From contig DATJZN010000024.1 in NCBI GenBank assembly GCA_035499075.1, forward strand, positions 19,549 to 83,548: a DNA stretch of 64,000 nucleotides, written 5' to 3'. This DNA is from Myxococcota bacterium (GTDB lineage: Bacteria; Myxococcota_A; UBA9160; SZUA-336). This document shows, piece by piece, positions 6,630 through 55,161 of the stretch. A model generated the notes under the pieces. The model searched no databases, was not told where the DNA came from, and saw only the letters and a program-made list of their open reading frames with translations. The position numbers were made by a program, and so were the translations under genes. The stretch's first letter is position 1. Every line of letters starts with the position of its first letter.

Positions 6630-6794
6630 GCGGCTCCCATCCCGCGGATCCTACCTCCAAACGCCACGGTCGGAGCGAGCGGGCGGTCTGATAGAATGGG
6701 CAGCGTTCCTGCCGCAACGCGCGCGTCGTCCGGCGACGTGCGCCCGCTCACCGGCCGCGCGGGCCGGACGAGATCCACTTCGATCGGGGAGGCG

Positions 6795-14627: not shown

Positions 14628-15982
14628 GCCTTCTCCTCCGAGTCACCGTGGCTCGTGCGAAGGAACACCCACACGGGCGCGGCGAGCAGCACCAGGATCA
14701 GCGACCACATGCCGGCCTCGGCGCCGGCGCCATAGATCGTGCCGAGCGAGAACACGAACGCGACCAGCGCCACCGGCGTGAACGGCCCCACCCGCAGCGC
14801 GCGCGAGATGGGCTTGCGCTGCACGAACAGCACGGCCTCCACCACCGAACAGAACACGTAGGGGATCATCGCGGCGTCGGTCGAGAGGTTGACCACGAGA
14901 TTGTAGAACGCCACGAACGCCGACGTGCCCGACGCGCTGAACAACACGAGCAAGGTCGACAGCGCCACCGAGACCGCGAGCCCCTGTGCCGCGACGCCGC
15001 GCGAGGACACGCGCGCGAAGATCGGCGGCATGGCGCCGTCTCGGGCCGCGGCCATCGGTACCTGCGAGAGCATGAGCGTCCAGCCGTTCAACGCGCCGAG
15101 CGACGAGACGATCGCCGCGAGCGCGATCACCGTCGCCGCCCACTCGCCCCACATGGCCCGTGCGGCGTCGGCGAACGGCGCCGAGGAGTGGCCCAGGGCT
15201 TCGCGCGGCAGCACGCCCATCACCACGGCCGTGCCCAGGATGTAGATCGCGGCGGAGACGAGCGTGCCGAGCACCGTCGCGCGCGGAATCGTGCGGCGCG
15301 GGTCGATCACGTCGCCCGCGGGGACCGTCGCGGACTCGATGCCGAGGAATGCGAACATGGTGAGCGGCGCCGTGGCCGCCAGCGCGGAGAGGAACGGCTC
15401 GCCCGTCGGGTTCACCGTGTCGAACGTGTGCCAGTCGACCCAGAACAGGCCGAGCGTCGAGATCGCAGCGAACGGCACGATCTTCGTGTAGGTCGTGACC
15501 GCCGCGAAGAGGCCCGCCTGCTTCACGCCGCGCATGTTGAGCAGCGCGACGCCCCACATCGCGCCGAGCGCGATCGCGATGCCGAGCGCGCGGTGGCCGC
15601 GCAGCGCGGGCACGAGCGACGCGAGATAGCCGACGAGCGCCGCCGCCATGGCGGGCAGCGAGGCCCAGATCGAGATCCAGTAGCCCCACGCGATCATGAA
15701 GCCCGCGAAGTGGCCGAAGCCCATGCGCGTGTACGCGTAAGGCCCGCCCGTCGCGGGCGCGATTCGCGCGAGCCGCGCGAACACGAGCCCGAGACACACG
15801 GCGCCCACGGCCATCACGGCCCAGCCGATCAGCGCCGTGGTGCCGTAGCGCGCGAGCGCGGCGGGCGCCACGAAGAAGCCCGAGCCCACCATGTTGCCGA
15901 TGACGAGCGCGGTCGACGTGGCGAGGCCGAGGCTCTGCCCGCCGGTGTCGCTCGTAGCAGCCGTGTCGGAAGCCGTCGCCAT
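14624..15982 (-). CDS. APC-family amino-acid/polyamine antiporter (AdiC/ArcD-like)
   Basis: Motifs IGNMVGSGFFVAPAALA, GGPYAYTRMGFGHFAGF and GWTLMLSQVPMAAARDGAMPPIFARV match AdiC-type arginine:agmatine antiporters. 452 aa with about 12 transmembrane segments. Confidence 0.8.
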   Translation of the reverse strand: MATASDTAATSDTGGQSLGLATSTALVIGNMVGSGFFVAPAALARYGTTALIGWAVMAVGAVCLGLVFARLARIAPATGGPYAYTRMGFGHFAGFMIAWGYWISIWASLPAMAAALVGYLASLVPALRGHRALGIAIALGAMWGVALLNMRGVKQAGLFAAVTTYTKIVPFAAISTLGLFWVDWHTFDTVNPTGEPFLSALAATAPLTMFAFLGIESATVPAGDVIDPRRTIPRATVLGTLVSAAIYILGTAVVMGVLPREALGHSSAPFADAARAMWGEWAATVIALAAIVSSLGALNGWTLMLSQVPMAAARDGAMPPIFARVSSRGVAAQGLAVSVALSTLLVLFSASGTSAFVAFYNLVVNLSTDAAMIPYVFCSVVEAVLFVQRKPISRALRVGPFTPVALVAFVFSLGTIYGAGAEAGMWSLILVLLAAPVWVFLRTSHGDSEEKA

Positions 15983-24139: not shown

Positions 24140-25390
24140 GTGCCGGGGTCGGTCGGGGAGACGAGCGCGGAGCTGCGGACCGCGTCGCAGAGCGACGTGG
24201 GCCGCGCGCGCCGGGACAACCAGGATGCGTTCGGCGAATTCACGGGCGCGGGCGGCGAGCGCCTGCTCGTGGTCGCGGACGGCATGGGCGGGCACGTGGG
24301 CGGCGCCACGGCGAGCCGGATCTGCGTCGAGACGCTCGGCGCGGCGCTCGAAGACGCGGAGGGCCGGCCCGAGACGCGGCTCGCGCGCGCTCTCTCGCTC
24401 GCGAACGCGCGCATCCGCGAGGCGGCCGAGCGCCAGCCCGAGCTGGCGGGCATGGGCACGACGGCGGTCGCGCTGCTGTTCACGACGCGCGGCACGGCCT
24501 GGCTCGGCTGGGTCGGCGACAGCCGCGCGTACCGGGCGCGCGACGGCGAGCTCGAGGCGCTTTCGAGCGACCACTCCGTCGTGGCCGAGTGGGTGAAGGT
24601 CGGCATCCTGCAGCCCGACGAGGCCGAGCACCACCCGCGGCGCAACGAGCTCCTGCGCGCGCTGGGCGCGAGCCCGGACGTCGAGCCCGAGCTGCGCGAG
24701 CTGCAGGTGCGCGCGCGCGACCGGTTCCTGTTGTGCACGGACGGGCTCTCGGCGGTCGTCCCGAGCGAGGAGATCCGCGCCGTGCTCGCCTTCGAGACGC
24801 CCGAGCTCGCGGTGAAGAAGCTCGTCGCCATGGCGAACGAGCGCGGCGGTCCCGACAACGTGACGGTCACGATCGCCGAAGCGGCGGAGGCGACCGCGCG
24901 CCCCGCCGCGCTGGCCGCGGCGCCGCGGCGCTCCGCGCGGGCGCTGCGCGCGCTCCTCGCCGTGGCGGCGGCCATCGCGGTCGGGCTGTTCGCCACCATC
25001 CTGTATGCGCTCGCGCACGGCGGCGGCGGGCTGCCCCCGAAGCCGGCGCCGGCCCCCGCTGCCGCGCGGGCGGCCCCGAGCGAGGCCGACCTGCTCCGCT
25101 TCATCGACGACTGGGAGGCCGCTGCCAACGCCCACGACGCGCCGCGGCTGCGCGGGCTCGGCTTCGAGCTCACGCCCGAGTCGCTCGAACGCGACTTCCC
25201 ACGCGACGGCGGGCGACTCGACGTGACGTTGCTCTCGCAGCAGCCGCTGGCCGACGACCTGTGGGGGCTCCGGCTCCGGCTGGCCTACACACATCCGGGT
25301 CGGGCGGGCGTCGAGCGCCACGAGGTCGAGCGGGCGATCCTCGTGCGCGCGAGCGCGGGCGCCCTGCACTACGCGGGCGCTTGGGAGTAG
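24140..25390 (+). CDS. PP2C-family Ser/Thr protein phosphatase with a C-terminal transmembrane segment and extracytoplasmic domain
   Basis: Motifs RRDNQDAF, VADGMGGH and LLCTDGLS. A transmembrane segment LRALLAVAAAIAVGLFATILYALA follows the catalytic domain. Confidence 0.8.
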   Translation: MPGSVGETSAELRTASQSDVGRARRDNQDAFGEFTGAGGERLLVVADGMGGHVGGATASRICVETLGAALEDAEGRPETRLARALSLANARIREAAERQPELAGMGTTAVALLFTTRGTAWLGWVGDSRAYRARDGELEALSSDHSVVAEWVKVGILQPDEAEHHPRRNELLRALGASPDVEPELRELQVRARDRFLLCTDGLSAVVPSEEIRAVLAFETPELAVKKLVAMANERGGPDNVTVTIAEAAEATARPAALAAAPRRSARALRALLAVAAAIAVGLFATILYALAHGGGGLPPKPAPAPAAARAAPSEADLLRFIDDWEAAANAHDAPRLRGLGFELTPESLERDFPRDGGRLDVTLLSQQPLADDLWGLRLRLAYTHPGRAGVERHEVERAILVRASAGALHYAGAWE

Positions 25391-25435
25391 CCGGTCCGCG
25401 CGGGCCTGAGATATCCTCGAAGGGCGGAGGCCGGG

Positions 25436-26038
25436 TTGGATTTCCATCGGATCTTCGATCGATTTCGCAGCGGGCGCTCGCGCAACCGCGGCGTCCGCCG
25501 CGCGTCTCCGCGGCCGCGTGACTCGCGCACCGACACCGAGTTCGTGCACACCGGGCCGCCGAGCTACCCGCCGCTCGCGCCGAGCCACCCGCCCGTGCCG
25601 CCGGTCGCGCCGCCGCCGGTCGCGCCGCCGCTGCCGGAGCCCGTCGTGCCGCGCGCCGCTCCCGCGCAGCCGGCGCAGCCCGCGAGCGACGCGGGGGCCA
25701 CGCGCATCCTGTCTCTGCCGGTGTCCGCCCAGGGCGCCGTCGCCGCCGTGTTGATCTGCATCGAGGGCAAGCTCGAGGGCGAGGTGTACAAGGTGCGCGA
25801 CGGCGAGAACCGGCTCGGCCGCGCGCCGGGCGCCGAGATCCGCCTCGACGACCGCGACGAGACGGTCTCGCGCGAGCACGCGCTCATCATCCACCGCGAC
25901 GGCGCGTTCGGCATCAAGCCGCTCAAGACCGACAACCCCACGTTCGTGAACGGCGAGGAAGTCGAGGGCGGCGCCTCGCTGTCGGACGGCGACCAGATCC
26001 GGGTCGGCCGCAGCACCTTCCGCTTCCGGGTCGCGTAG
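25436..26038 (+). CDS. FHA-domain protein
   Basis: C-terminal FHA fold: RLGRAPGAEIRLDDRDETVSREHALIIHRDGAFGIKPLKTDNPTFVNGEEV...IRVGRSTFRF. The N-terminal half is Pro-rich and low-complexity. Confidence 0.7.
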   Translation: MDFHRIFDRFRSGRSRNRGVRRASPRPRDSRTDTEFVHTGPPSYPPLAPSHPPVPPVAPPPVAPPLPEPVVPRAAPAQPAQPASDAGATRILSLPVSAQGAVAAVLICIEGKLEGEVYKVRDGENRLGRAPGAEIRLDDRDETVSREHALIIHRDGAFGIKPLKTDNPTFVNGEEVEGGASLSDGDQIRVGRSTFRFRVA

Positions 26039-26040
26039 CC

Positions 26041-27369
26041 GTGCGGCGCGCCGCCGCGCCCCGGCTGGTCGCCGCCGCGCTCTTCCTGGCAGCGCTCTCC
26101 GCGCGCGCCGCGGACACGGGCGGCGAGCTCGAGTTCAAGCAGACCGAGCGGCTCTTGCTGGACGACGTGTTCCCCGAGCCGGGCGGCGAGCGCGCGGTCG
26201 AGCTGCACTTCCGCGCGCTGACGCACAATGGTGTACCCGTGAAGGGGCTGCGCCCCGCCGACGTCGGGCTGTGGCAGGACTCCGACCGCATCGACTCGAA
26301 GTCGCTGTCGGTCGAGACGCTCGCGCAGTCGGGTCAGGGCGTGACGTGCGTGCTCGCGATCGACGCGTCGGGCACGATGCGCGGCGACCCGTTCGACCGC
26401 GCGAAGGAGGCCGCGCTCGCCTTTCTCGATCGGCTGCAGCCCGGCGACCGCGTGGCGGTGGTCACGTTCGCAGAAGACGTGAAGGTCGCAGCCAGCTTCG
26501 AGCTGTCGCGGCCGGAGACGCGCCAGGCGATCTCGGGGCTCGCGATCGACCTCGAGCGCAGCCAGCACACGCTCCTGTACGACGGCGCGGTGCAGGCGCT
26601 CGACCTGATCCGCTCCGCGCGCGGCGTCCCGCGCACGGCCTTCGTGCTGCTCTTCAGCGACGGCCGCGACGGCGGCAGCGACAAGACGCGCGACGCCGTG
26701 ATCGCGCGCGCGCGCGGCGAGGGCGCCGAGCCGCACATCCTGATCTTCAGCCTGGGCTACGCGCGCTTCGGCGGCGAAGGGCTCGACGAGATGCGCCGCA
26801 TCGCGGCGGACTCGGGCGGCGAGTTCATGCAGGCGGAGTCGATGGTCCACCTGCGCGACTTCTTCGACGCCATCGCGACGCAGATGCTCGAGAGCTACGT
26901 GGTCCGCTTCCCGGCTTCGCTCGACGGCGCGGAGCACCGCGTGCGCATCGAGGTCGACGAGAAGAGCGCGGAACGCAGCCTCGTGTACCCCTCGTTGGCG
27001 CGGCCGCTCTGGCCGTGGCTCGCGGCGCTCGGCGTGTTGCTCGCGGCGGCCGCGCTCGTGCTCGCGCTGCGCGCGCGCCGGCCTGCGGGCCGCATCGCCG
27101 TGGTGTCGGGCGCGAAGGCGGGTCTCGTGTACGACCTGCCGTCCGGGCGCACGCGCATCGGCGCGCTCGACGACAACGACATCGTGCTGCTCTCGGGCGC
27201 CGTGTCGCGCTACCACGCCGAGATCACCGCGCGCGGCAGGCGCGTGTCGATCGCAGACCTGCGCTCGAAGAACGGCACGCGCGTGAACGGCCAGGTCGTC
27301 TCCGAGAGCCCGCTGCGCCCCGGCGACCGCATCGCGATCGCAGACGTGGAGATGGTCTACGAGCGCTGA
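26041..27369 (+). CDS. Signal-peptide, vWA domain, TM, FHA domain protein
   Basis: The vWA MIDAS motif is VLAIDASGTM...DRVAVVTFAED...LLFSDGRD. A transmembrane segment WPWLAALGVLLAAAALVLAL follows. The C-terminal FHA is RIGALDDNDIVLLSGAVSRYHAEI...NGTRVNG. Confidence 0.75.
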   Translation: MRRAAAPRLVAAALFLAALSARAADTGGELEFKQTERLLLDDVFPEPGGERAVELHFRALTHNGVPVKGLRPADVGLWQDSDRIDSKSLSVETLAQSGQGVTCVLAIDASGTMRGDPFDRAKEAALAFLDRLQPGDRVAVVTFAEDVKVAASFELSRPETRQAISGLAIDLERSQHTLLYDGAVQALDLIRSARGVPRTAFVLLFSDGRDGGSDKTRDAVIARARGEGAEPHILIFSLGYARFGGEGLDEMRRIAADSGGEFMQAESMVHLRDFFDAIATQMLESYVVRFPASLDGAEHRVRIEVDEKSAERSLVYPSLARPLWPWLAALGVLLAAAALVLALRARRPAGRIAVVSGAKAGLVYDLPSGRTRIGALDDNDIVLLSGAVSRYHAEITARGRRVSIADLRSKNGTRVNGQVVSESPLRPGDRIAIADVEMVYER

Positions 27370-38513: not shown

Positions 38514-40796
38514 ATGGCGTACACGCAGAAGGACCGGATGTGCCGCATGACGTCGCCGCTGGGCGCCGACGCGCTGCTCGTCCGCCGCATGCGCGTCTCC
38601 GAGGCCGTGTCGAGCCTCTTCACGGTCGAGCTCGAGCTGCTCTCCGAGAGCGACGACCTGTCGTTCGACGCGATCGTCGGGAAGCCGGTCTCGATCTCGG
38701 TCGAGCTGAACAACAAGAAGCCGCGCTGGTTCCACGGCCTGGTGTCGCGCTTCGCGCACGGCGGCGCGAAGGGCCGCTTCGTGGCGTACCGCGCCGAGGT
38801 CGTGCCCACGCTGTGGAAGCTGACGCGGCGCTCGGGCTGCCGGATCTACCAGCACGTGTCGGTGCCCGACATCGCGAAGAAGCTCTTCACCGAGCTGGGT
38901 GTCACCGAGGTGCGCCAGGACTTCGCGAAGTCGTACCCGGCGCTCGAGTACTGCGTGCAGTACCGCGAGAGCGACTTCAACTTCGTGTCGCGCTTGTTCG
39001 AGGACGTGGGCATCTCGTACTTCTTCGAGCACGGCGAGAAGGCCGACACGCTGGTGCTGTTCGACTCGCCGCACGGCAACGCGCCGTGCCCGGGACAGGC
39101 GACCGCGATCTACGCCACCGCGTCGGACGCGGGCGGCACGTCGGGCGAGGTCAGCGAGTTCCACGTCGAGCGGCTGTTGCGCGCGGGCAAGTACTCGCAC
39201 ACGGACTTCAACTTCGAGCAGCCGAGCCTGTCGCTGCACACCACGACGCCGAGCTCCATGGGCATCGGCGGCAACGAGCAGTTCGAGATCTACGAGCACC
39301 CGGGCACGTTCACGCTGCCGCCGCAGGGCGAGTCGCGCGCCAAGACCCGCATGGAGGCGGAAGAGAGCGCGTCGCTCGAAGCGCGCGGCACGAGCCGCTG
39401 TGCCGCGTTCACGCCCGGCTATCGCTTCGACCTGCGCGGCCACCACCGCAAGGACACGAACGACGCTTGGGTGCTCACGGAAGTCGTGCACGAAGTGGTC
39501 GACAGCGTCGACCCCGAAGACCAGGGGAGCTACGAGAACACCTTCGTGTGTCGGCCGCACAGCGTGCCGCTGCGGCCGCTGTGTCGGACGCCCAAGCCGA
39601 TCATCTACGGCGTGCAGACGGCCACGGTCGTCGGCGCGGCGGGACAGGAGATCGACGTCGACCCGCACGCGCGCGTGGTCGTGCAGTTCCACTGGGACCG
39701 CGAAGGCAAGCGCGACCAGAACAGCTCGTGCCGCGTGCGCGTAGCGCAGAACTGGGCGGGCAAGGGCTGGGGACTCATCGCGCACCCGCGCATCGGCCAG
39801 GAGGTGATCGTCGAGTTCGTCGAGGGCGACCCCGACCGGCCGATCGTGACGGGCCGCGTGTACAACGGCGAGCAGACCGCGCCGTACGGGCTGCCCGCGA
39901 ACTCGACGCAGACGGGCATCAAGACGCGCAGCTCGCCGGGCGGCGGCGGCTTCAACGAGCTGCGCTTCGAGGACAAGGCGGGCAGCGAGCTCTTGTACGT
40001 TCAGGCGCAGAAGGACCGCTCGACGCTCACGAAGAACGACGACTCGCAGGAGGTCGGCCACGACCGCACGCGCAAGGTGGTGAACGACGAGAAGGTCGCG
40101 ATCGGCGCCAACCAGAACATCGACGTCACGTCGAACCGCACGCGCACCGTCGGCGCGGACGAGTCCGTGACCATCGGCTCGAACCGCACGAAGAACGTCG
40201 GCGCGGACGAGAGCTCCACGATCGGCGCGAACTACACGCAGTCGGTCGGCGGGAGCCGCACGCGCAGCGTCATGGGCGCCGAGACCGTCACCGTCGCGCT
40301 CGCGCGCACGCACACGGTCGGCGTGAACGAAGCCATCAGCGTCGGCGCCGCGCAGGAAGTCACGGTGGGCGCGGCGCGGACCGTCACCGTGGCGGGTTCG
40401 CAGACCACGAGCGTCGGCTCGTCGCACACCGTGACGGTCGGCGGGAAGCAGGACGTGAACGTCGGCGCGGACCGCGGCCTCACGATCGCCGGAAAGCACG
40501 GCGTGAAGGTCGGCGCCGACGAGTCGGTGAACATCGGCGGGAAGCACCTGGTCGAGGTCGCTTCGGACCGCGGGCTGAAGGTCGGGGGCGATCTCACCGA
40601 CGACGTCGGCGGCAACTACATCGCGAAGTCGGGCAAGGCGATCACGATCGGTGCTTCGGACGAGATCGTGCTCGAGGCGGGCAGCGCGAAGATCACGCTC
40701 TCGAGCAACGGCGACATCACGCTCGAGGGCAAGCAGATCAACGTGAAGGGCTCAGGGAACATCGTGCTGAAGGGCCAGAAGATCCTCGGGAATTGA
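38514..40796 (+). CDS. vgrG: VgrG (TssI) spike protein
   Basis: gp27/gp5-like N-terminus (RFHGLVSRFAHGG...YRAEVVP), an OB-fold, and a C-terminal beta-helical repeat region (VGADES.TIGSNRT... repeats). Confidence 0.9.
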   Translation: MAYTQKDRMCRMTSPLGADALLVRRMRVSEAVSSLFTVELELLSESDDLSFDAIVGKPVSISVELNNKKPRWFHGLVSRFAHGGAKGRFVAYRAEVVPTLWKLTRRSGCRIYQHVSVPDIAKKLFTELGVTEVRQDFAKSYPALEYCVQYRESDFNFVSRLFEDVGISYFFEHGEKADTLVLFDSPHGNAPCPGQATAIYATASDAGGTSGEVSEFHVERLLRAGKYSHTDFNFEQPSLSLHTTTPSSMGIGGNEQFEIYEHPGTFTLPPQGESRAKTRMEAEESASLEARGTSRCAAFTPGYRFDLRGHHRKDTNDAWVLTEVVHEVVDSVDPEDQGSYENTFVCRPHSVPLRPLCRTPKPIIYGVQTATVVGAAGQEIDVDPHARVVVQFHWDREGKRDQNSSCRVRVAQNWAGKGWGLIAHPRIGQEVIVEFVEGDPDRPIVTGRVYNGEQTAPYGLPANSTQTGIKTRSSPGGGGFNELRFEDKAGSELLYVQAQKDRSTLTKNDDSQEVGHDRTRKVVNDEKVAIGANQNIDVTSNRTRTVGADESVTIGSNRTKNVGADESSTIGANYTQSVGGSRTRSVMGAETVTVALARTHTVGVNEAISVGAAQEVTVGAARTVTVAGSQTTSVGSSHTVTVGGKQDVNVGADRGLTIAGKHGVKVGADESVNIGGKHLVEVASDRGLKVGGDLTDDVGGNYIAKSGKAITIGASDEIVLEAGSAKITLSSNGDITLEGKQINVKGSGNIVLKGQKILGN

Positions 40797-40803
40797 GGGG
40801 AAC

Positions 40804-41322
40804 ATGGGCGAAGAGACGGATCTCCCAGCGCAGATCGAAATCGTGCTCGGCGACTTGGCCGGCGGGCTCGAGACGGCCGCGGAGCCGCTGCCGAAGGCGG
40901 ACGGCGTGGTGCTCGGCCGCCTCGTCGCGTTCCGCGAGGACGGCGCGCCCCTGGTGCACTTCGAGGGCTGCGCCGATGGTGCGCCGGTGGCGGCGCTCGT
41001 CGTCGGCTCGCTCTCCGACGATGACGTCGGTGCCGACGTCGCGCTCGCGCTCGCTGCCGGCGACGCCCGCCGGCCCGTGGTGCTCGGCCGCACGCGCGCC
41101 GCGATTCCGGCGGCCGAACGCGCACGCGCCGCGTCGCCGCTCGAGACCAGCGCAGACGGCCAGACCGTGGCGCTCACTGCGGGGCGGCAGCTCGTGCTGC
41201 GCGTGGGGCGCGCGACCATCACGCTCACACAGGACGGCAGGATCGTGATCCGCGGCGGTCAGCTGGTGAGCCGCGCCTCGGGCGTGAACCGCATCCAGGG
41301 CGGCTCGGTCCAGATCAACTAG
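40804..41322 (+). CDS. Hypothetical VgrG-associated protein
   Basis: 172 aa, sitting immediately 3' of vgrG. The C-terminus TITLTQDGRIVIRGGQLVSRASGVNRIQGGSVQIN resembles spike beta-helix repeats. No known catalytic motif was found. Confidence 0.4.
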   Translation: MGEETDLPAQIEIVLGDLAGGLETAAEPLPKADGVVLGRLVAFREDGAPLVHFEGCADGAPVAALVVGSLSDDDVGADVALALAAGDARRPVVLGRTRAAIPAAERARAASPLETSADGQTVALTAGRQLVLRVGRATITLTQDGRIVIRGGQLVSRASGVNRIQGGSVQIN

Positions 41323-41333
41323 TCGGCTCGCCC

Positions 41334-42386
41334 GTGAACCTGCAGAACTTCACCCCCTTTCCGGCGGAGATCACGCTGGCCACCGACAAGGACGGCCGCG
41401 ACTCGTATCTCGTCGTCGTGAAGGGGACGTTCGAGATCGGCGACGGCGAGCCGCGTCCCGCCGCGGAGCAGGTGCCGTTCTTCTACGGCGACCAGCACTA
41501 CGGCGACCCCGAGACCACGAGCATCAAGTACGAGAGCGAGTTCGCGCCGGTGAAGTCGCGTGCCGACGTGGTGGTGGTCGGCGACGCCCACGCGCGCGGC
41601 CGCGGCGTGCGCAGGCTCTCGGTCGAGGTTCGCGTCGGACGCATGCGCAAGAAACTCATCGTACGCGGCGACCGGCGCTGGCGCTTCGGACTCGGGATTC
41701 TGTCGCGAGTCAGTTGGGCGCGGCGCTTCGAGTCACTCCCGATCGTGTACGAGCGGGCCTTCGGCGGCGCCGACACCTCGCACGACAACCCGAAGCGGCA
41801 CCGCTTCGAACGGCGCAACCCGGTCGGCACCGGCCTCGTGCGCCGCCTGCGCGCGAAGGGCGCGCTGCCGAACTTCTACTATCCGGGCGAGTCGTTGCGC
41901 CGCCCGGGCAAACGCATCCGGCCCGCGGGCCTCGGCTTCGTCGGACGCGGCTGGGAGCCGAGAGCGAGTCACGCGGGAACGTACGACGGGGCGTGGAAGA
42001 AGGAGCGCTTTCCGCTGTTGCCGGAGGACTTCGACGACGAGTACCACCAGGGCGCACCGCCGGACCAGCGCTGCGAGCTGCTGCGCGGCGGCGAGCCCGT
42101 CGAGCTGCGCAACTTGACGCCCGACGGTCGCCTGTCGTTCCGGCTGCCGCCGCTGGCGCTGGCGATCCGCTTCCGCTTCGCGAGCCGCACCGAAGAGAGC
42201 GTGATGTACGGCGACACGCTCATCCTCGAGCCCGGCCTCGGCCGCTTCCAGGTCGTGTGGCGTGCGTCTCGGCCCGTCGACGGGAAGCTGCTCGCGCTCG
42301 GCGAGGTGTGGATCGGCACGCCCAGCCGCGGGCGCCTGCTCGCCGTAGAGACGCGCAAGCAATACATCGACCGGAGCGCGCGGTGA
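41334..42386 (+). CDS. DUF2169-family T6SS effector adaptor
   Basis: The N-terminus MNLQNFTPFPAEI...VVVKGTFEI is typical of DUF2169 proteins. Position downstream of vgrG and upstream of a PAAR-like effector matches the known adaptor context. Confidence 0.6.
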   Translation: MNLQNFTPFPAEITLATDKDGRDSYLVVVKGTFEIGDGEPRPAAEQVPFFYGDQHYGDPETTSIKYESEFAPVKSRADVVVVGDAHARGRGVRRLSVEVRVGRMRKKLIVRGDRRWRFGLGILSRVSWARRFESLPIVYERAFGGADTSHDNPKRHRFERRNPVGTGLVRRLRAKGALPNFYYPGESLRRPGKRIRPAGLGFVGRGWEPRASHAGTYDGAWKKERFPLLPEDFDDEYHQGAPPDQRCELLRGGEPVELRNLTPDGRLSFRLPPLALAIRFRFASRTEESVMYGDTLILEPGLGRFQVVWRASRPVDGKLLALGEVWIGTPSRGRLLAVETRKQYIDRSAR

Positions 42387-43417
42387 GCGCGGTCGAAGTC
42401 CAGGCCGCGGGGCTCGTGACCGCCGTGGGACTCACCGCGGCCGCGTCCGCCGCCGCGCTGCGCGCGCGGATCATGCGCTTCCGCGAGACGCCGTTCCTCG
42501 ACGCCGGCGGCTCTCCCGTGATCGGCGCGCCGATCCGCGGCATGGCCGACGGCGAGCTGGGCACGCAGCGCCTCGCGACGCTCTTGTGCGCCGCGCTCGA
42601 CGACGCCGCGCGACAGCTCGGCGAGCCGATTCCCGACGGCACGCCGCTCGTCCTGGGCCTCGCCGAACGCGAACGCGCGGGCCGGCCGCCGGGGCTCGAG
42701 TCGCAGCTCGCCGACGCGATCGTCCGCGACGCGGGCTGGCGCTTCGACGAGGCGACCTCGTCCGTCGTCGCAACAGGAAACACGAGCGGCGCGCGCGCTT
42801 TCGAGCTGGCGCGGCGCGTGCTCGAGCGCGGCGCGCCACGCGTGGTCGTGGCGTGCGTCGATTCGTTCTTGAACGCGCCGGCGCTCGCGCAGCTCCAGGC
42901 CGCGGAGCGGCTGAAGAGCGAAGACGACCCCGACGGTGTGATTCCGGGCGAAGCGGCGGGCGCCCTGGTGCTCGGCGCTGCGCTCGACGGCGCGCGGAGC
43001 CGCGCGCGCCTCGCGGTCGCGGGCGCCGGCTTCGCGCGCGAGAGCGCTGCCGCGGACCGCGCGCGACCGAACACGGGCGTTGGCCTCGCGGCCGCGATCC
43101 GCGCGTGTCTCTCGGACGCGCGCGCGGGCACGCGGAACACCGACTTCCGGCTGAGCGACGTGAGCGGCGAGCGGCGCGCGTTCGTCGAGACCCAGTACGC
43201 GATGAGCCGCACCCTGGCCGAGTCGCACGCGGACTATCCGCTGTGGCTGCCGGCCGAGTCGTTCGGCGAGATCGGTGCCGCGAGCGTGCCCGCGCAGCTC
43301 GCGGTCGCCGCGGCGTCGTTTGCGAAGGGCTACGCGCCCGGCCGGGCAGCGCTGTGTCAGAGCGGCTCCGCGGACGGCGACCGCGCCGTCCTCTTTGCGG
43401 TGGCGCTGGCGGGCTGA
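42383..43417 (+). CDS. Thiolase-fold, beta-ketoacyl-synthase-like protein (possibly catalytically degenerate)
   Basis: The GTG start overlaps the DUF2169 stop. A KS-like Cys context VVACVDSF is present. The KS His motif appears replaced, with SFGEIGAASV where KS enzymes have GHxxGAAG. 344 aa. Confidence 0.45.
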   Translation: MSAVEVQAAGLVTAVGLTAAASAAALRARIMRFRETPFLDAGGSPVIGAPIRGMADGELGTQRLATLLCAALDDAARQLGEPIPDGTPLVLGLAERERAGRPPGLESQLADAIVRDAGWRFDEATSSVVATGNTSGARAFELARRVLERGAPRVVVACVDSFLNAPALAQLQAAERLKSEDDPDGVIPGEAAGALVLGAALDGARSRARLAVAGAGFARESAAADRARPNTGVGLAAAIRACLSDARAGTRNTDFRLSDVSGERRAFVETQYAMSRTLAESHADYPLWLPAESFGEIGAASVPAQLAVAAASFAKGYAPGRAALCQSGSADGDRAVLFAVALAG

Positions 43418-44415
43418 TGGGCAACGACGTCTACGCGAACAACATGAACGTCGCCTGCAAGGCGGGCGACGGAAAGGTGATCTGCGCGTTCCCCGACGTG
43501 TGTCTATCGCCGCCCACGCCGCCTGCGGGTCCGATCCCGATTCCCTACCCAGTCACTTCCATGTCGAGTGATACGACCGACGGATCGGGCACCGTCACCG
43601 TGAACAACAAGGAGGTCATGCTCAAGGACAAGTCGTGCTACTCGAAGTGCACGGGCGACGAGGCGGCGACGAAGACGCTGGGCATGGGCGTCGCCAACGC
43701 GTCGCTCTCCGGAAAGGTGTACTTCAAGATGTGGTCGATGGACGTGCAGATGGAGGGCGAGAACGTCGTGCGCGCCTTCGACATCACCACGTCGAACCAC
43801 ATGAGCGAGGTCGGCAACGCGGCGGTGCCCATGATCAACTCGGAGCGCATGGGCTTCACGCAGCTCGGCGAGTGCAAGGGCGTGAACAAGAAATTCGAGC
43901 TCGTGCCCTACGAGAGCACCAACCCGAGCACCGGCGACAAGGACCTGACGTGCGGGCGCAAGGGGATGACCGGCCACCATCTGATTCCCGGCCGCTGCAT
44001 GAAGACGAGAACCACCGCAGGCGGGAACGCCGCGTATCCGAAGGGCTGCTCTCACGACAAGGCGCCCTGCGTGTGCGTCGACAACGAGAACCAATACGAC
44101 GGCACGCACAAGGAGTGCCACGCCATCTTCGACCCCATCGAGCAGCAAGAGGCCAAGAAGCCGCCCAAGGACCAGATGACGTACAAGAAGGCGCGCGACA
44201 CGGCCGCGGAGTCGGCCGCGGGGATCAACGGCGGGAAGGACCTCACCGATAAGCAGCTCGAGTGCGTGAAGGCGCAGCTCGACAACTACTACAAGAAGTG
44301 CCTCGCGAACCAGGACGGCTCGATCGCGTTGAACTCGCCGCTCAACGCTCAGGCGGACAATTCCGGCCTCGTGTTGCCGAGCACGAGCTCGGTCGGCGGT
44401 CTCGGCAGCCCGTGA
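43417..44415 (+). CDS. PAAR-like (DUF4150) protein with C-terminal Tox-GHH HNH/EndoVII-type nuclease toxin domain
   Basis: The ATG overlaps the upstream stop in CTGATGG. N-terminal DUF4150 signature KVICAFPDVCLSPPTPPAGPIPIPYP. C-terminal GHH motif MTGHHLIPGRCMK plus Cys/His-rich CSHDKAPCVCVDNENQYDGTHKECH. Local GC is lower and the sequence is Lys-rich. Confidence 0.65.
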   Translation: MGNDVYANNMNVACKAGDGKVICAFPDVCLSPPTPPAGPIPIPYPVTSMSSDTTDGSGTVTVNNKEVMLKDKSCYSKCTGDEAATKTLGMGVANASLSGKVYFKMWSMDVQMEGENVVRAFDITTSNHMSEVGNAAVPMINSERMGFTQLGECKGVNKKFELVPYESTNPSTGDKDLTCGRKGMTGHHLIPGRCMKTRTTAGGNAAYPKGCSHDKAPCVCVDNENQYDGTHKECHAIFDPIEQQEAKKPPKDQMTYKKARDTAAESAAGINGGKDLTDKQLECVKAQLDNYYKKCLANQDGSIALNSPLNAQADNSGLVLPSTSSVGGLGSP

Positions 44416-44431
44416 GCTTCAGGGGGGAAAC

Positions 44432-45352
44432 ATGGCGAAGAAGCGGAAGCGCGGCGCGCTGTACTTCACGAGCATCGCGCGCGCGGGCGACGACTCCGTC
44501 GCGCTCTCGGGCAACTACTACATCTACGAGGACGGCGACGAGAAGCGCACCGCGCTGATCTCCCTGAAGCAAGGCCACTGGGGCGCGCTCGACGTGTCGG
44601 GCATCGTCCACGCCGCGCGCATCATCGGTACGTTCCCGAGCGGGAAGTGGACCATGCTCGGGCTCACGCAGAGCGGCGGCGTGTATCGGGCGTCGCCGTC
44701 GGGCGTGAAGTTCGCGATGATCGACGAGGAGCGGCCCGGCTCGCTCATGGACCTGCGCCAGATCGGGGGCAAGTGGTACGCGGTCGGCGGGCATCTGCGC
44801 ATCCATCGCGAGGACCGCGCCGGACACTGGACGGCGATCGACGACGACGTCTACCTCGAGGACGAAAAGGGCAACACGAAGCTCCTCTTGAGCATCGACG
44901 GCACCTCGGGCTCGGACCTGTGGACGGTGGGCTACAACGGCACCGTCCTGCATTACGACGGCTCGAGCTGGTCGTCGGTCGAGTCGCCGACCGACTACGG
45001 CCTGCAGCGCGTGCTCTGCCCGAAGAAGGGCGTCGTGTACGTGTGCGGTTACGGGAACTCGCTGTTCCGCCGCAACGCGAAGGGCGGCTGGGATGCGCTC
45101 ACGGAGCCCGACGAAGACATCGTGTTCTGGGACATGGCGTGGTTCCAGGACGAGCTCTACGTGTGCACGAAGAAGGACCTCTTCGTGCTGCGCGACGGCG
45201 AGCTCGAGAAGGTGAAGCCCAAGGTCGACGGGCCGCTCGGCTTCTACCGCATGGACGCCGACGACGGCGAGCTCTGGACGTGCGGCAACGAGTGCGTGCT
45301 CCGCTTCGACGGCAAGAAGTGGAAGCAGTTCGTCTGGCCCGACAACGAGTGA
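44432..45352 (+). CDS. Candidate immunity protein (beta-propeller-like repeat protein)
   Basis: 306 aa with no signal peptide. Repeated blade-like motifs are GHWGALDVSG, GKWTMLGLTQSGGVY, GGKWYAVGGHLRIH, GSDLWTVGYNGTVLHYDGSSW and GELWTCGNECVLRFDGKKW. It lies directly 3' of the toxin. Confidence 0.5.
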   Translation: MAKKRKRGALYFTSIARAGDDSVALSGNYYIYEDGDEKRTALISLKQGHWGALDVSGIVHAARIIGTFPSGKWTMLGLTQSGGVYRASPSGVKFAMIDEERPGSLMDLRQIGGKWYAVGGHLRIHREDRAGHWTAIDDDVYLEDEKGNTKLLLSIDGTSGSDLWTVGYNGTVLHYDGSSWSSVESPTDYGLQRVLCPKKGVVYVCGYGNSLFRRNAKGGWDALTEPDEDIVFWDMAWFQDELYVCTKKDLFVLRDGELEKVKPKVDGPLGFYRMDADDGELWTCGNECVLRFDGKKWKQFVWPDNE

Positions 45353-45353
45353 G

Positions 45354-46592
45354 TCAGGCGCGGCGGTCGCGCGCGAAACACTCGAGCTCGACGTCCGGCG
45401 CGTCGGTGCCCAGCTCGAGACACCGGCGCAGGCAGGCGTCGCGACCGCCCTCCAGGTCGAGCTCCGCGAGCACCTCGCCGAGCGACAGCGCGTCGACGTC
45501 GCGTCCGCGCCGCCAGCGCCGGCGCGGATCGAAGTCACCGCCGCGCTTGCGCCACAGCGCGCGGGCCTCGTCGGCGTCGAACATGGTCGCGTCGACGTCC
45601 TGCACCCGCGCGCGCCCGAGCGCCTCGCCGACGATCGCCTCGAAAGCCTCGGCCGCGGCGGCGGAGAGGTCGGGCACCTCGAGCATTTCCAGGAGCTTCG
45701 GCAGCGCCTGCGGGTCGCCGAGCGCGCCGAGTCCCTGCAGCGCCGCGGGCGCCAGCTCGGGCGAGGCGAGCGCGGCCTCGAGGGCCGGCCGGTCGCTCGT
45801 GGCACCGAGTGCGCCGAGCCAACGCAGCTCGACCGCACGGGCGCGGTCGGGCTGGCGCGCGGAGGCGCGCAGCAGCTCCAGCACCTCGGGCTGGCCCCAG
45901 CGCGCGCCCGCGCAGAGCGCCGCGATCCGGACCTCGGGCGCGGGATCGGCATGGCTCGCGACGAGCTCGCGGCGGTCGGGCGCGGGCCCCACGCGCAGAC
46001 GTACGGCCCAGTGGATCGCGCGCAGCGCCGCCGCTCCGCTCGCGCCGAATGCGGCGACGAGCCCGTGCGGTACCTCACGCCGGTGGAACGCGAGCGCGTC
46101 GGCCCAGACCGCGCGCTCCAGGTCCGCGGGCCCGTCCAGCCGCTCGCGCGCTTCGGCTTCCCAAGTCGACACCGAACAGTGTCGCAGTCCGTGACGCGCG
46201 CCCGCCGCGGCGGGCAGGGCAGCCCCGCGCAGCGCTTGGGCCACGGCACCCGGGTCGGGAGTCGGCCGTCTCAACAGCGTCCAGGCGCCCGCGGCGACGA
46301 GGCTCCAGGCGTCGGACCCGAGCGCCGCGCGAGCCAGCGCCGCGCCCGTCACGCCGCCTTCGAGCAGGCCGTCCAGGTGCGCCTCCATGCGGTCCTCGTG
46401 CCGGCGCAAATGCAAGGGGCGGAAGCCCGCGCGGAAGATCGACGTCTCGCGCAGCTCCCACAGGAAGTCGAGCTCCGCAAGGTGCTCCTCGAGCACGTCG
46501 GCCAGGACGGGCGGCTCGGACGAGGGCACGCCGTCAGCGCACCGCGGCCTCGATCCGCTGGCGCAGCGGATCCGCCAGCCGCGGCAGCGCAT
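45354..46592 (-). CDS. HEAT-like (PBS-lyase type) repeat protein
   Basis: Repeats of the type LRWLGALGATSDRPALEAALASPELAPAALQGLGALGDPQALPKLLEML. The exact start is uncertain; a GTG near 46526 would avoid overlap with the upstream gene. Confidence 0.5.
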   Translation of the reverse strand: MRCRGWRIRCASGSRPRCADGVPSSEPPVLADVLEEHLAELDFLWELRETSIFRAGFRPLHLRRHEDRMEAHLDGLLEGGVTGAALARAALGSDAWSLVAAGAWTLLRRPTPDPGAVAQALRGAALPAAAGARHGLRHCSVSTWEAEARERLDGPADLERAVWADALAFHRREVPHGLVAAFGASGAAALRAIHWAVRLRVGPAPDRRELVASHADPAPEVRIAALCAGARWGQPEVLELLRASARQPDRARAVELRWLGALGATSDRPALEAALASPELAPAALQGLGALGDPQALPKLLEMLEVPDLSAAAAEAFEAIVGEALGRARVQDVDATMFDADEARALWRKRGGDFDPRRRWRRGRDVDALSLGEVLAELDLEGGRDACLRRCLELGTDAPDVELECFARDRRA

Positions 46593-47289
46593 CGAGGTCG
46601 ACGAGCTCGATGAACGCGGGCACGCCCGAGAAGCGCGTCGCTTGCGCGATGAGCTCGTCGCTGGGTCGGAAGGCCGGTACCGCCGAGCGCAAGGTGACGA
46701 GCGGCAGCTCGCCGAGCGACTCGCGCTTCTCGATCACCACGTCGTAGCGCAGCTCTCGGAACAGCTCGCCGATCTCGGGCAGCCCGACGAGGAGCTGTTC
46801 GAGCACCAGCGCCGACAGCACGAACTGCCGCGCGTCGCTCGGGCGCAGCGAGGCGCGGTTCGCGAGCGCAGCTTCGAGCTGCGCGAGCGTGTAGCCCGAG
46901 CGGAACGCGATCGCCCAGCGCGCGGGATCGGTGATCGCGATCGTGCGGCCGTCGCTTTCGAGTGTATGGGCGTACTCGAACGGGAACACGTCGAGGATCG
47001 GCTCGACCGAGAGCGGCTCGTCGTCGAGCTCCTTGGGCAGGTTGAACGGGCGCCCGCAGGCAGCGAGCCAGCGCTCCTTCAGCCGGGCCAGCGCGCGGTC
47101 GGCGCCGGGCACCTCGTCGCGGCCGCCGCCCCGCACGTGCCGGCCCAGCAGCCGGCGGGGGGAAAGCACCGGCCGCAGCGCCTCCAGCTGGGCGGCCAGG
47201 CGCTCGCGCAGGAGCTTCGCCACCGTTTCGGTCTTCGCGCGCATGCGGGCCAGCTCGTCGATCGTGAGCGGGCGTCCGGGGTCGCTCAT
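46534..47289 (-). CDS. Hypothetical protein
   Basis: A 250-278 aa ORF in the track (46534..47370). The start is either at MSDPGRPLTIDELARMRAK (47289) or at 47370. No recognisable domain. Confidence 0.4.
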   Translation of the reverse strand: MSDPGRPLTIDELARMRAKTETVAKLLRERLAAQLEALRPVLSPRRLLGRHVRGGGRDEVPGADRALARLKERWLAACGRPFNLPKELDDEPLSVEPILDVFPFEYAHTLESDGRTIAITDPARWAIAFRSGYTLAQLEAALANRASLRPSDARQFVLSALVLEQLLVGLPEIGELFRELRYDVVIEKRESLGELPLVTLRSAVPAFRPSDELIAQATRFSGVPAFIELVDLDALPRLADPLRQRIEAAVR

Positions 47290-47391
47290 GGGGAGTTCAC
47301 TCCGCGGCCACGCTATCGCTGCGGGCTTGCGCGGGTCAAGGCTTCTTTCGATTGACCCCGGCGGAGGCATTCATCCATACTTCGCGCGGAG

Positions 47392-53051: not shown

Positions 53052-53792
53052 GTGAGGCCGCTGCGCGCGCTCGGCTGCCTGCTCGCCGCGGCTCTGGCGG
53101 GCGCGTGCGCGAAGCCGCCGCCCGACCTCGACGCCGAGCCCGCCGGCGCGATCGCGCTCCCGCTCGGCCAGGTGCACGCCGACACCCTCGACTGCGACAA
53201 GGGCGACTGCGCCGACTGGTACAAGATCGCCGTGCCGGGCGAGGGCAAGCTGTTCGTCGACGCCGACCCCGCGGTCGCCAACGCGGGTTTCGCGGTGCAG
53301 CTCGTCGACGCGGGCGGAGCGCCGCTCGCAGCGGGCGACAGCGCGGGCGGGAAGGCGGCCGTGCGCCTGCACACTCCGGTGTCGGAAGGAGCGGTGCTCG
53401 TGAAGGTCGTGCCCACGGATGCGAAGGCGAACGTCGCGTACGCCGTCACGGCGCGCTTCAAGCCTGCACCGCCGCCTCCGGTCGTGAAGGCGCCCGAGCC
53501 GCGCTTCGAGACGAAGAGCGCCGCGGTGCTCGAGGTCGAAGGCGACCGCACGGCGCATCCGGCGGTGCTGATCGACGCGGGCCAGGCGGCGAAGCTCGCT
53601 CCCGGCATGCGCGGCCGCCTGGTCGACAAGGGCCATACGATCGGCCAGATCGTGGTGCAGGACGTCTATCCCGACGGGAGCCGCGCGCGCGTCGACGGCC
53701 CGCTGTCGGGGCAGATCGGCCCGCACACGACCGCAGAGATCGACGTGCCGATCGCCGCTCCGGCGGGCCCGGAGAGCCCGCCCGAGAAGTAG
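53052..53792 (+). CDS. Lipoprotein of unknown function (T6SS-adjacent)
   Basis: Signal peptide with lipobox LAGAC. Cys-containing motif DCDKGDCADWYKIAV. 246 aa. Confidence 0.5.
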   Translation: MRPLRALGCLLAAALAGACAKPPPDLDAEPAGAIALPLGQVHADTLDCDKGDCADWYKIAVPGEGKLFVDADPAVANAGFAVQLVDAGGAPLAAGDSAGGKAAVRLHTPVSEGAVLVKVVPTDAKANVAYAVTARFKPAPPPPVVKAPEPRFETKSAAVLEVEGDRTAHPAVLIDAGQAAKLAPGMRGRLVDKGHTIGQIVVQDVYPDGSRARVDGPLSGQIGPHTTAEIDVPIAAPAGPESPPEK

Positions 53793-53796
53793 CGGC

Positions 53797-55161
53797 GTGG
53801 CCGCGCGCCTGGTCGAGCTCCGCGGCGGCCGCATCGCGTCGGAGCGCCGGCTCGGCCGCCGCGAGGTCGTGCTCGGCCGCGCTCCGTCGTGCGACGTCGT
53901 GCTCGACGACCCGCGCGTGTCGCGCGAGCACGCGCGCATCGACGCGAGCGAGGGCGAACACCTGCTCGTGGACCTGGGCAGCCGCAACGGCACGCGCGTG
54001 AACGGCCAGCCGGTCACGCGCGCGGTCGCGCTGCGCGACGGCGACCTCGTGCAACTCGGCGACGCGGTGTTCCGCTACGAGCTCGAAGCGGGGGCGCGGC
54101 CGCGCACCGCGCTGTGGCTCGGCGTAGCGGCGGCCGGAGTGATCGCGCTGGCGGCAGGCTTGTTCTTCGCGCTGCGCAGCGACCCGGTGCTGCGTCAGGC
54201 CGCGGAGACGGCGCGCGCCGCCGTCGAGGCCTCGCAGAAGGGCGACGCCGCGCGCGGGCGCGACTTGCTGCAGGACGCGGTCGCGCAGCTCTACCGCGCG
54301 GGGCGGCTCGACGACGTGCCGCGCCTGCACGCGCGCGAAGAGGGCCTGCAGCGGCTCGGCCAGGCGCTGGGCGGCGGCGTCGACCTCGTCGCCCTCTACC
54401 GCGCGGACGTCGAGCGCGGGCGCGCGCGCCAGGTGTCGGCTGCGCCGCCGCCGGGCCGCGGTCCGTGCCGGCTCGACGAGATCGCCGCCGCCGACCTCGA
54501 CGTGTGCGTGCGCGAGCGCGCCGAGGCGATCCTCGTGGGGCTGTGGCAGGACCCCGCGAAGGTGCCCGACTCGTTCTACCGGCAGGTCGAGGACCAGCTC
54601 TTGTTCCTGCTGCGGACGAATCGGCCGTGGGTCGCGTCGTCGCTCGCGCGCGGCGAGAAGCTCGAGCCCCTGCTCGTGCGCGAGCTCACCGCCGCGAAGG
54701 TACCGCCGCAGCTCCGCTACCTGGCCATGATCGAGAGCGGCTACAACCCGAACGCCGCCAGCGGGGCCGGCGCGCGCGGTCTGTGGCAGTTCATCCCGTC
54801 GACGGCGCAGCGCTACGGGCTCGTGGTGTCGGGCTCGGTCGACGAGCGCCTCGACCCCGCGAAGTCTACGCGCGCGGCGGCGCGCTACCTGTGCGACCTG
54901 GCGTTCGAGTTCGGCGACGAGGCGCTGCTGCTCGCCGTCGCGTCGTACAACAAGGGCGAGGGCGGCATCCGCTCCGCGCTCCACAAGCTCGACGACCCGC
55001 GCACGGAGCGCTCGTACTGGGTGCTCGCGCAGCGCGGGCTCCTGCCGGCCGAGACGCGCGACTACGTGCCGCGGCTCATCGCTGCCGCGGTGCTGGGCGA
55101 GGCGGGCGTGCCTTCGGAGGCCGCGCTCGCGGAGCGGCAGACCGCCTCGGCGCATGAGTGA
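53797..55161 (+). CDS. FHA domain, TM, lytic transglycosylase (SLT domain) fusion protein
   Basis: N-terminal FHA: VVLGRAPSCDVVLDDPRVSREHARI...NGTRVNGQPV. Transmembrane segment LWLGVAAAGVIALAAGLFFAL. C-terminal SLT motifs LAMIESGYNPNAASGAGARGLWQFIPSTA and ...SYNKGEG. Confidence 0.7.
   Translation: MAARLVELRGGRIASERRLGRREVVLGRAPSCDVVLDDPRVSREHARIDASEGEHLLVDLGSRNGTRVNGQPVTRAVALRDGDLVQLGDAVFRYELEAGARPRTALWLGVAAAGVIALAAGLFFALRSDPVLRQAAETARAAVEASQKGDAARGRDLLQDAVAQLYRAGRLDDVPRLHAREEGLQRLGQALGGGVDLVALYRADVERGRARQVSAAPPPGRGPCRLDEIAAADLDVCVRERAEAILVGLWQDPAKVPDSFYRQVEDQLLFLLRTNRPWVASSLARGEKLEPLLVRELTAAKVPPQLRYLAMIESGYNPNAASGAGARGLWQFIPSTAQRYGLVVSGSVDERLDPAKSTRAAARYLCDLAFEFGDEALLLAVASYNKGEGGIRSALHKLDDPRTERSYWVLAQRGLLPAETRDYVPRLIAAAVLGEAGVPSEAALAERQTASAHE

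Follow-up and report, generated by a model that had tools for sequence, protein, structure and literature searches.

The window analyzed here, a 64,000-nucleotide (nt) stretch of contig DATJZN010000024.1 from a metagenome-assembled genome (MAG) of a Myxococcota bacterium, carries a complete type VI secretion system (T6SS) cluster. Inside this cluster, two adjacent genes on the forward strand encode a putative Tse7-like effector of 332 amino acids (aa; window positions 43417..44415) and a putative Tsi7-like immunity protein of 306 aa (44432..45352), the subjects of the present analysis. The genes for TssA, TssB, TssC, Hcp, TagJ/ImpE, and ClpV lie upstream of the pair, and those for TssJ, TssK, TssL, and TssM lie downstream. 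Both proteins are 100% identical to proteins of a public Myxococcota MAG, where the effector carries the annotation PAAR-like domain-containing protein and the immunity protein is listed as hypothetical protein VMR31_07910.

Toxin and propeller genes

The toxin is 332 aa long and not 333 aa, as stated in an earlier, sequence-only reading of this DNA, because its 333 codons include the stop codon. Its ATG (43417-43419) shares one base with the TGA (43415-43417) of the upstream gene (gggcTGATGg), and the two genes are therefore taken to be translationally coupled, as had been proposed. Pfam searches divide the protein into an N-terminal PIPY/DUF4150 spike-tip domain and a C-terminal Tox-GHH2 nuclease domain, and a protein search with the toxin as query returned 3416 homologues, P. 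aeruginosa included. The N-terminal domain (residues 21-132; 43477..43812, forward strand) matches PF13665 (Tox-PAAR-like/DUF4150) with 100.2 bits against a cut-off of 31 (E 8.8e-29), so the PAAR-like DUF4150 assignment of the sequence-only reading is confirmed by the profile search. It carries the PIPIPYP motif (GPIPIPYP, residues 38-45), in which P39, P41, P43, Y44, and P45 are invariant (alignment A2). This PIPY motif, which replaces the PAAR motifs, was defined by Sachar et al. 2025 [PMC11883445], and DUF4150 was renamed the PIPY domain in the same work. The linkage associated with PIPY domains is also found, in that genes for DUF2169 (41334-42386) and VgrG (38514-40796) are located on the same strand as the toxin gene.

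The C-terminal domain (residues 185-291; 43969..44289, forward strand) matches PF15635 (Tox-GHH2) with 30.6 bits against a cut-off of 25 (E 4.8e-7), and the match spans positions 2-121 of the 122 in the profile. The family originally named, Tox-GHH (PF15636), gave no match in the toxin at E ≤ 0.1 in the Pfam search; what stands of that claim is the membership in the HNH/EndoVII nucleases, now through the sister family Tox-GHH2. Both toxin motifs that had been quoted, AFPDVCLSPPTPPAGPIPIPYP and MTGHHLIPGRCMK, are present in the protein. The signature T185-G186-H187-H188 (G186-H187-H188 at 43972-43980) corresponds to the S(A/G/P)HH / GHH signature described in PMC4067218, and the downstream residues H231 and H235 are invariant. 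Among 17 homologues, Tse7 included (43-79% identical), the invariant positions comprise C153, H187, H188, L189, A216, P217, C220, H231, H235, and E242. In the AlphaFold2 (AF2) model, residues 147-321 have predicted local distance difference test (pLDDT) values of 85-95 and form a strand(184-188)-strand(217-222)-helix(229-247) arrangement, where H187/H188 close the first strand and H231/H235 are positioned on the long helix. The model is poor over the N-terminal half because the alignment is shallow.

One could ask whether this C-terminal domain is a degenerate, noncatalytic remnant, so that the protein functions solely as a spike tip. Such a remnant would fit with the Pfam score near the cut-off and with a structural comparison that returned no solved HNH nuclease as a match. 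However, every invariant His, Cys, and Glu of the family is kept, and the domain is modeled with confidence over the pLDDT range given above. Moreover, the domain is 57-66% identical to its counterparts in Desulfosarcina, Nitrococcus, Falsiroseomonas, and a Nitrospirae MAG, that is, to homologues from other phyla, which is above the conservation of the scaffold genes, and an intact immunity gene that co-varies with the domain is retained alongside it. A remnant is hence most improbable.

The second gene starts 17 nt after the toxin stop codon, and a Shine-Dalgarno-like run, GGGGGGA, is located 5-6 nt 5′ of its ATG. Its product has no Pfam or NCBIfam family above cut-off, the SUKH and Imm families included, in agreement with the earlier remark that it belongs to neither; P. 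aeruginosa Tsi7 is likewise without a Pfam match. FAM234A/B and Rax2 (Pfam) and the F510_1955 glycosylhydrolase (NCBIfam) were considered and rejected, as their scores are far under the cut-offs and represent generic propeller noise. The AF2 model, built from 22 homologues, has a pLDDT of 93.7 and a predicted template modeling score of 0.91, and its 28 strands are arranged as seven blades of four strands each. With high confidence the protein is thus predicted to be a seven-bladed beta-propeller, as the sequence-only reading had anticipated from its repeats. A Foldseek comparison with the PDB returned seven-bladed propellers, e.g., RACK1, Ycf48, and virginiamycin B lyase (TM scores of 0.65-0.69), with no specific relative among them. 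The propeller is most likely cytoplasmic, because its N-terminus is without a hydrophobic stretch and residues 10-17 are modeled as a strand. A search of the rest of the window for a second (orphan) copy of the immunity or the toxin gene found none.

Relationship to Tse7-Tsi7 and pairing across genomes

BLASTP aligns the propeller with the product of the gene right after tse7 in a P. aeruginosa locus (L006) at 32% identity (E 9e-42) over residues 1-305 of 306 and 1-304 of 304, respectively; this end-to-end similarity identifies the immunity candidate, at the sequence level, as a Tsi7 homologue. Identity to the equivalent Defluviicoccus gene product is 30%. Equating the L006 gene with PA0100 (Tsi7) relies on synteny together with PMC9846239 and PMC10281587. 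The toxin is 46% identical to P. aeruginosa Tse7 (PA0099; E 8e-75), and the motif TGHHLIPGRCM is the same in both. The order VgrG, DUF6484, DUF2169, thiolase-like, PAAR-like/GHH2, propeller, HEAT recurs around propeller homologues in Desulfosarcina cetonica, Nitrococcus mobilis, and an ENA assembly. It also recurs in L006, where genes for a PAAR-Ntox46 protein and a DcrB protein, which we take to be Tse6 and EagT6, lie on one side and genes for a carbonic anhydrase and a sulfate transporter on the other. L006 is the vgrG1b island PA0093-PA0103. The Tse7 copy of this locus (6001-7068; P0160, assembly GCA_053172975.1) is 355 aa long, departs from the canonical 315-aa Tse7 (P0121) past approximately residue 270, and its open reading frame (ORF) overlaps tsi7 by approximately 100 nt; it resembles a frameshifted allele or the product of a sequencing error.

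The prototype is experimentally characterized. PA0099 is a VgrG1b-dependent antibacterial effector with a DUF4150 domain and a Tox-GHH2 domain [PMC4067218], and Tse7 (PA0099) and Tsi7 (PA0100) are described as a Tox-GHH2 nuclease and its immunity protein [PMC10281587; PMC9846239; for PA0100 as the Tse7 immunity protein, see also bioRxiv 10.1101/733030]. Strains from which tse7-tsi7 had been deleted were killed by the parent, and deletion of the P. aeruginosa DUF2169 gene (pa0097) abolished the Tse7-dependent advantage, although complementation failed; the conclusive work on DUF2169 as chaperone of VgrG-PIPY spike complexes was done in Vibrio parahaemolyticus [Sachar et al. 2025, PMC11883445]. 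The arrangement itself was named "synteny type A" in PMC11883445. Tox-GHH2 is the commonest toxin beside PRK06147 (54.5%) and DUF2169 (38.1%), and PRK06147 has been proposed to act as an adaptor [Liu et al. 2020, PMC7714669].

The pairing of toxin and propeller was examined in genome loci, the best 80 of at least 533 confirmed, ranked by match to the full-length toxin. They span the Alpha-, Beta-, and Gammaproteobacteria, Myxococcota, Desulfobacterota, Nitrospirota, Planctomycetota, Verrucomicrobiota, Acidobacteriota, Calditrichota, and Eisenbacteria, and all their ORFs were searched with profiles of the propeller and of the N- and C-terminal domains of the toxin. A Tsi7-like ORF is located directly downstream, on the same strand, in 78 of the 79 loci that have this toxin C-terminal domain; in L081 the contig ends right after the toxin gene. 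The propeller is absent from all four loci without this domain, one of which (L074) is truncated. In L087, a different toxin C-terminal domain is followed by a 129-aa acidic ORF, in L066 an Rhs protein occupies the position of the propeller, and L058 (Thauera phenylacetica) has the remnant of a different toxin together with a 223-aa ORF, a candidate immunity gene. The scores of the toxin C-terminal domain and of the immunity protein are correlated with a Spearman rho of 0.65, the highest off-diagonal value among eight module genes.

These data bear on whether the propeller mainly serves the type A spike module as an accessory for structure or loading, comparable to DUF2169 or the thiolase-like protein, with protection coming from elsewhere. 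Its presence in 78 of 79 sampled modules from about ten phyla is unusually constant for an immunity gene, and its conservation equals or exceeds that of the scaffold genes (49-59% vs 34-41%). In addition, every gene of the Proteus mirabilis type A cluster is required for killing [PMC11883445], and a possible moonlighting of Tsi7-like proteins was raised in work on Sinorhizobium fredii [PMC11872809]. On the other hand, the propeller is gone exactly where the toxin C-terminal domain differs (L058, L066, and L087), while the scaffold genes are kept, and its divergence follows that of the toxin C-terminal domain rather than that of the scaffold (rho −0.10 to 0.42). The clusters of P. aeruginosa and of P. 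fluorescens differ only in the toxin domain and the immunity gene [PMC11872809; PMC9846239], and work on P. aeruginosa takes Tsi7 to be the cognate immunity protein. A mainly accessory role is accordingly very unlikely; the co-occurrence and co-variation fit an effector-immunity pair, unlike a scaffold component, despite the bias of the sample.

Collectively, we consider it highly probable that the two genes form a Tse7-Tsi7-type T6SS effector-immunity pair; the spike module that carries them is a canonical synteny type A one and lies within the main T6SS cluster of this Myxococcota MAG. The earlier suggestion of a PAAR-like nuclease effector with the adjacent propeller as immunity candidate is thereby supported through homology to Tse7 and Tsi7. 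Some points weigh against this assignment. The Tox-GHH2 score exceeds the Pfam cut-off modestly (30.6 vs 25 bits), and sequence searches of the PDB returned no solved relative of Tse7 or Tsi7. The near-universal pairing is biased to the Tse7 toxin family, because the 80 loci are the top-scoring matches to the full-length toxin. Furthermore, nuclease activity, toxicity, and protection are attributed to this pair by homology at 32-46% identity.

The effector-immunity assignment leads to the following model. The PIPY (DUF4150) domain would cap the VgrG trimer with the help of DUF2169, probably assisted by the thiolase-like, DUF6484, and HEAT proteins, as homology and published work suggest. Contraction of the sheath would then carry the spike with the attached toxin into a neighboring bacterium. 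There, by analogy with Tse7, the Tox-GHH2 domain would act as a beta-beta-alpha-metal (HNH/EndoVII) nuclease that degrades DNA; the conserved H187/H188 are candidates for the catalytic histidines, and the equally conserved H231/H235 on the next helix for metal ligands. In the producer and its kin, the cytoplasmic propeller would bind and block the nuclease domain. This part of the model is consistent with the homology to Tsi7, the strict adjacency of the two genes, and the co-variation of the propeller with the toxin domain, which are observed.

The combination is already known, as a published type A module with the P. aeruginosa vgrG1b cluster PA0095-PA0101 as its prototype. The seven gene families are the same in both, and their order is equal except for the inversion of the HEAT gene in the window. 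The host is a Myxococcota MAG here and a gammaproteobacterium there, and the module is positioned between clpV and tssJ in the main T6SS cluster, whereas in P. aeruginosa it forms a satellite vgrG island. The nuclease/immunity allele also belongs to a different subgroup, the C-terminal domain being only approximately 40% identical to that of Tse7. Other synteny type A modules, such as the P. mirabilis pef operon (PefE), have VgrG, DUF6484, DUF2169, a thiolase-like protein, a DUF4150 effector with a PIPY motif, and an armadillo/HEAT protein in common with the present one; PefE and the other members differ in their toxin domains and immunity genes, so that only the scaffold is common. The Tde2-Tdi2 pair of Agrobacterium tumefaciens is similar in that a DUF4150 effector with a C-terminal DNase domain needs a DUF2169 adaptor and its cognate VgrG. 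However, its toxin domain is Ntox15 (toxin_43), its immunity protein is not known to be related to the propeller, and its synteny is simpler, with the thiolase-like and HEAT genes absent. Another parallel is Tsre1-Tsrx of S. fredii USDA257, encoded in a type A-like cluster, where the protein after the PAAR-like effector is a structural Tsi7 homologue with glycoside-hydrolase/propeller-like matches [PMC11872809]. In that case the likeness to Tse7/Tsi7 was found by structure comparison, with no sequence similarity reported among the rhizobial proteins, whereas here it is readily detected by sequence.

The significance is mostly one of annotation, as the pair represents a known, experimentally characterized effector-immunity family in its most common genomic setting. 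The "hypothetical" and "PAAR-like domain-containing" genes of the Myxococcota MAG can be named Tsi7-like immunity protein and Tse7-like nuclease effector, respectively, and the Tse7-Tsi7 module extends well beyond the Proteobacteria, into the Myxococcota, Desulfobacterota, Nitrospirota, Planctomycetota, Verrucomicrobiota, Acidobacteriota, and Calditrichota. Tsi7-like proteins are a coherent family of seven-bladed propellers over about ten phyla and, having neither a Pfam model nor a solved structure, would be well suited to the definition of a family and to structural work on a toxin-immunity complex. An exhaustive search with the propeller profile gave 25,215 proteins at E ≤ 0.001, mostly giant multi-repeat proteins; since these giant blade-motif proteins swamped the matches, no clean size for the Tsi7 family could be derived. 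The blade motif GxxDIYAVGxxGxIxHYDGxxW (profile positions ~145-225) recurs 10-46 times in metagenome proteins of 1000-6700 aa (P0167-P0173 and similar). It is conceivable, albeit unlikely, that the propeller is more than an antidote. It could be an obligate partner of the toxin, e.g., one that holds the nuclease loadable until firing, since it is seldom missing from GHH2/SHH-type type A modules in about ten phyla and is better conserved than the scaffold. It could also inhibit an HNH nuclease in a structural mode not yet seen, as the relatives of Tse7 and Tsi7 are without a solved structure.

Composition and mosaic identity of the cassette

The sequence-only reading described both genes as lower in GC and richer in Lys than their surroundings and took them for a horizontally acquired cargo pair. 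The raw GC content is indeed 0.635-0.636 for the toxin and 0.664-0.666 for the propeller gene, against 0.70-0.77 in the immediate neighbors. However, TssB (0.659), TssC (0.666), and Hcp (0.679) are as low as the pair, and the Lys contents of toxin and propeller (8.4% and 6.9%) are similar to those of TssB and TssC (8.7% and 6.6%). The contrast holds for the adjacent genes and not for these three. The GC content at third codon positions (GC3) is 0.92 for the toxin and 0.96 for the propeller gene, the same as in core genes, and AAG accounts for 27 of 28 and 21 of 21 Lys codons, respectively. The GC expected from the amino-acid content and the codon usage of 23 other window genes is 0.645 and 0.659; the observed values deviate by −0.009 and +0.006, inside the range of those 23 genes. 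The low GC of the pair is thus due to its amino-acid content. The toxin has the highest K/(K+R) ratio of the region, 0.82. Like the low GC, the richness in Lys belongs to the proteins themselves, and aligned homologues share many of the Lys positions.

A recent horizontal import of the pair into the T6SS cluster, as a compositional island, would find its arguments in the raw GC, in the K/(K+R) ratio of the toxin, and in a mosaic pattern of identity that gives the cassette a history apart from the N-terminal domain. Against it stand the core-like GC3, the almost exclusive use of AAG, the minute gap between observed and expected GC, and the equally low GC of TssB, TssC, and Hcp. Moreover, the related Myxococcota loci L008 and L009 have the same toxin family, the same propeller family, and the same inverted HEAT gene. 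On the GC3 and expected-GC test, recent transfer was rejected, and we give it only a slight chance; the claim of horizontal acquisition from composition falls with it.

The mosaic pattern itself is seen when the genes of the module are compared one by one with their relatives. The nearest relatives, L008 and L009 (P0049 for the toxin values), are 87-93% identical to the window over toxin residues 1-135, and 53% over the nuclease core (residues 181-225). Their immunity proteins are 43-47% identical, and in L009 DUF2169, the thiolase-like protein, and VgrG are 60%, 52%, and 39% identical, respectively. The pattern is the reverse for Falsiroseomonas, the Nitrospirae MAG, Nitrococcus, and Desulfosarcina, with 44-67% over toxin residues 1-135 and 78-82% over the core (toxin values from the first three only), 49-59% for the immunity protein, 34-39% for DUF2169/thiolase-like, and 38-41% for VgrG. 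For P. aeruginosa and Defluviicoccus, the corresponding values are 51-53% (Tse7; whole-domain tblastn, 52% and 67%), 49% over the core (Tse7), 39-40% over the whole C-terminal domain, 30-32% for the immunity protein, 38-42% for DUF2169/thiolase-like, and 40% for VgrG. The identity of the immunity protein hence goes with that of the toxin C-terminal domain.

This mosaic implies that the nuclease-plus-immunity unit was exchanged, or diverged separately, at the domain junction. The PIPY-nuclease junction would then be a recombination point at which the cassette is exchanged among alleles of the same family. The exchange would be old, because codon usage is fully host-like; the data point to an old event among alleles of one family and not to a recent import. 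Of the swapped-in cassette put forward by the sequence-only reading, the exchange is consequently retained and the recent arrival is not. The same behavior has been reported for the PA0099 locus within P. aeruginosa [PMC11751169]. In T. phenylacetica (L058, 5639-7039), a 466-aa ORF that has the appearance of an insertion sequence transposase directly follows the PIPY domain of the effector as an insertion and separates it from the toxin remnant and the 223-aa candidate immunity gene. L058 may thus capture a cassette in the course of being disrupted or exchanged at the junction of the domains.

The spike module and its genomic surroundings

All six components that define synteny type A are present around the propeller: VgrG, DUF6484, DUF2169, the thiolase-like protein, the DUF4150 effector, and the HEAT protein. 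The first gene of the module encodes the 760-aa VgrG spike protein (38514..40796, forward strand), which is 38-41% identical to the VgrGs of homologous modules. Those compared were from L002, L003, L005, L006 (in the position of P. aeruginosa VgrG1b), and L007, identified by Pfam Phage_GPD / Phage_base_V and located at the head of their modules. It is followed on the same strand by a 172-aa DUF6484 protein (40804..41322; PF20093, E 1e-16), a conserved accessory whose position is kept in all related loci, and by the 350-aa DUF2169 protein (41334..42386; PF09937, E 2.4e-87), the putative chaperone/adaptor for PIPY (DUF4150) spike tips. The next gene, also on the forward strand, encodes a 344-aa thiolase-like / PRK06147 protein (42383..43417), a proposed adaptor. 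It matches NCBIfam PRK06147 at E 6.9e-75, with a score under the equivalog cut-off of that model. Its GTG start at 42383 overlaps the DUF2169 stop codon (GTGA), and the resulting length fits the 338-348 aa of the homologues.

The last conserved type A gene encodes a 412-aa HEAT/armadillo-repeat protein (45354..46592, reverse strand; HEAT_2, E 4.2e-7; TIGR02270, E 7.5e-21) that is homologous to the HEAT protein encoded after tsi7 in L006 and in other loci. In the window the gene is inverted and convergent with the immunity gene, and only 1 nt separates their stop codons. It is on the same strand as tsi7 in P. aeruginosa, Nitrococcus, and Desulfosarcina, and inverted in L008, L009, L010, L036, L052, L073, and L087. 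Loci inverted in this way come from the related Myxococcota and from several Alphaproteobacteria, where the genes for VgrG and DUF6484 are on the opposite strand as well.

Between the HEAT gene and tssJ, a 278-aa ORF (46534-47370, reverse strand; coding-like GC3 of 0.90) without a Pfam or NCBIfam family overlaps with its 3′ end the start of the HEAT gene (46534-46592). A further ORF of 246 aa (53052-53792, forward strand; GC3 0.93), without a Pfam family, is located directly after tssM. The T6SS core is flanked at 24140-27369 and 53797-55161 (both forward strand) by genes for a PP2C phosphatase, a small FHA protein, a VWA-FHA protein, and an FHA-SLT (lytic transglycosylase) fusion, which suggests that firing is controlled by threonine phosphorylation. 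An FHA-SLT fusion also adjoins the module in Desulfosarcina (L002). Finally, the region 12324-18229 (reverse strand) encodes an Orn/Lys/Arg decarboxylase, an amino-acid permease, and a permease-solute-binding fusion, which resemble an acid-resistance decarboxylase/antiporter set and are unrelated to the T6SS cluster.

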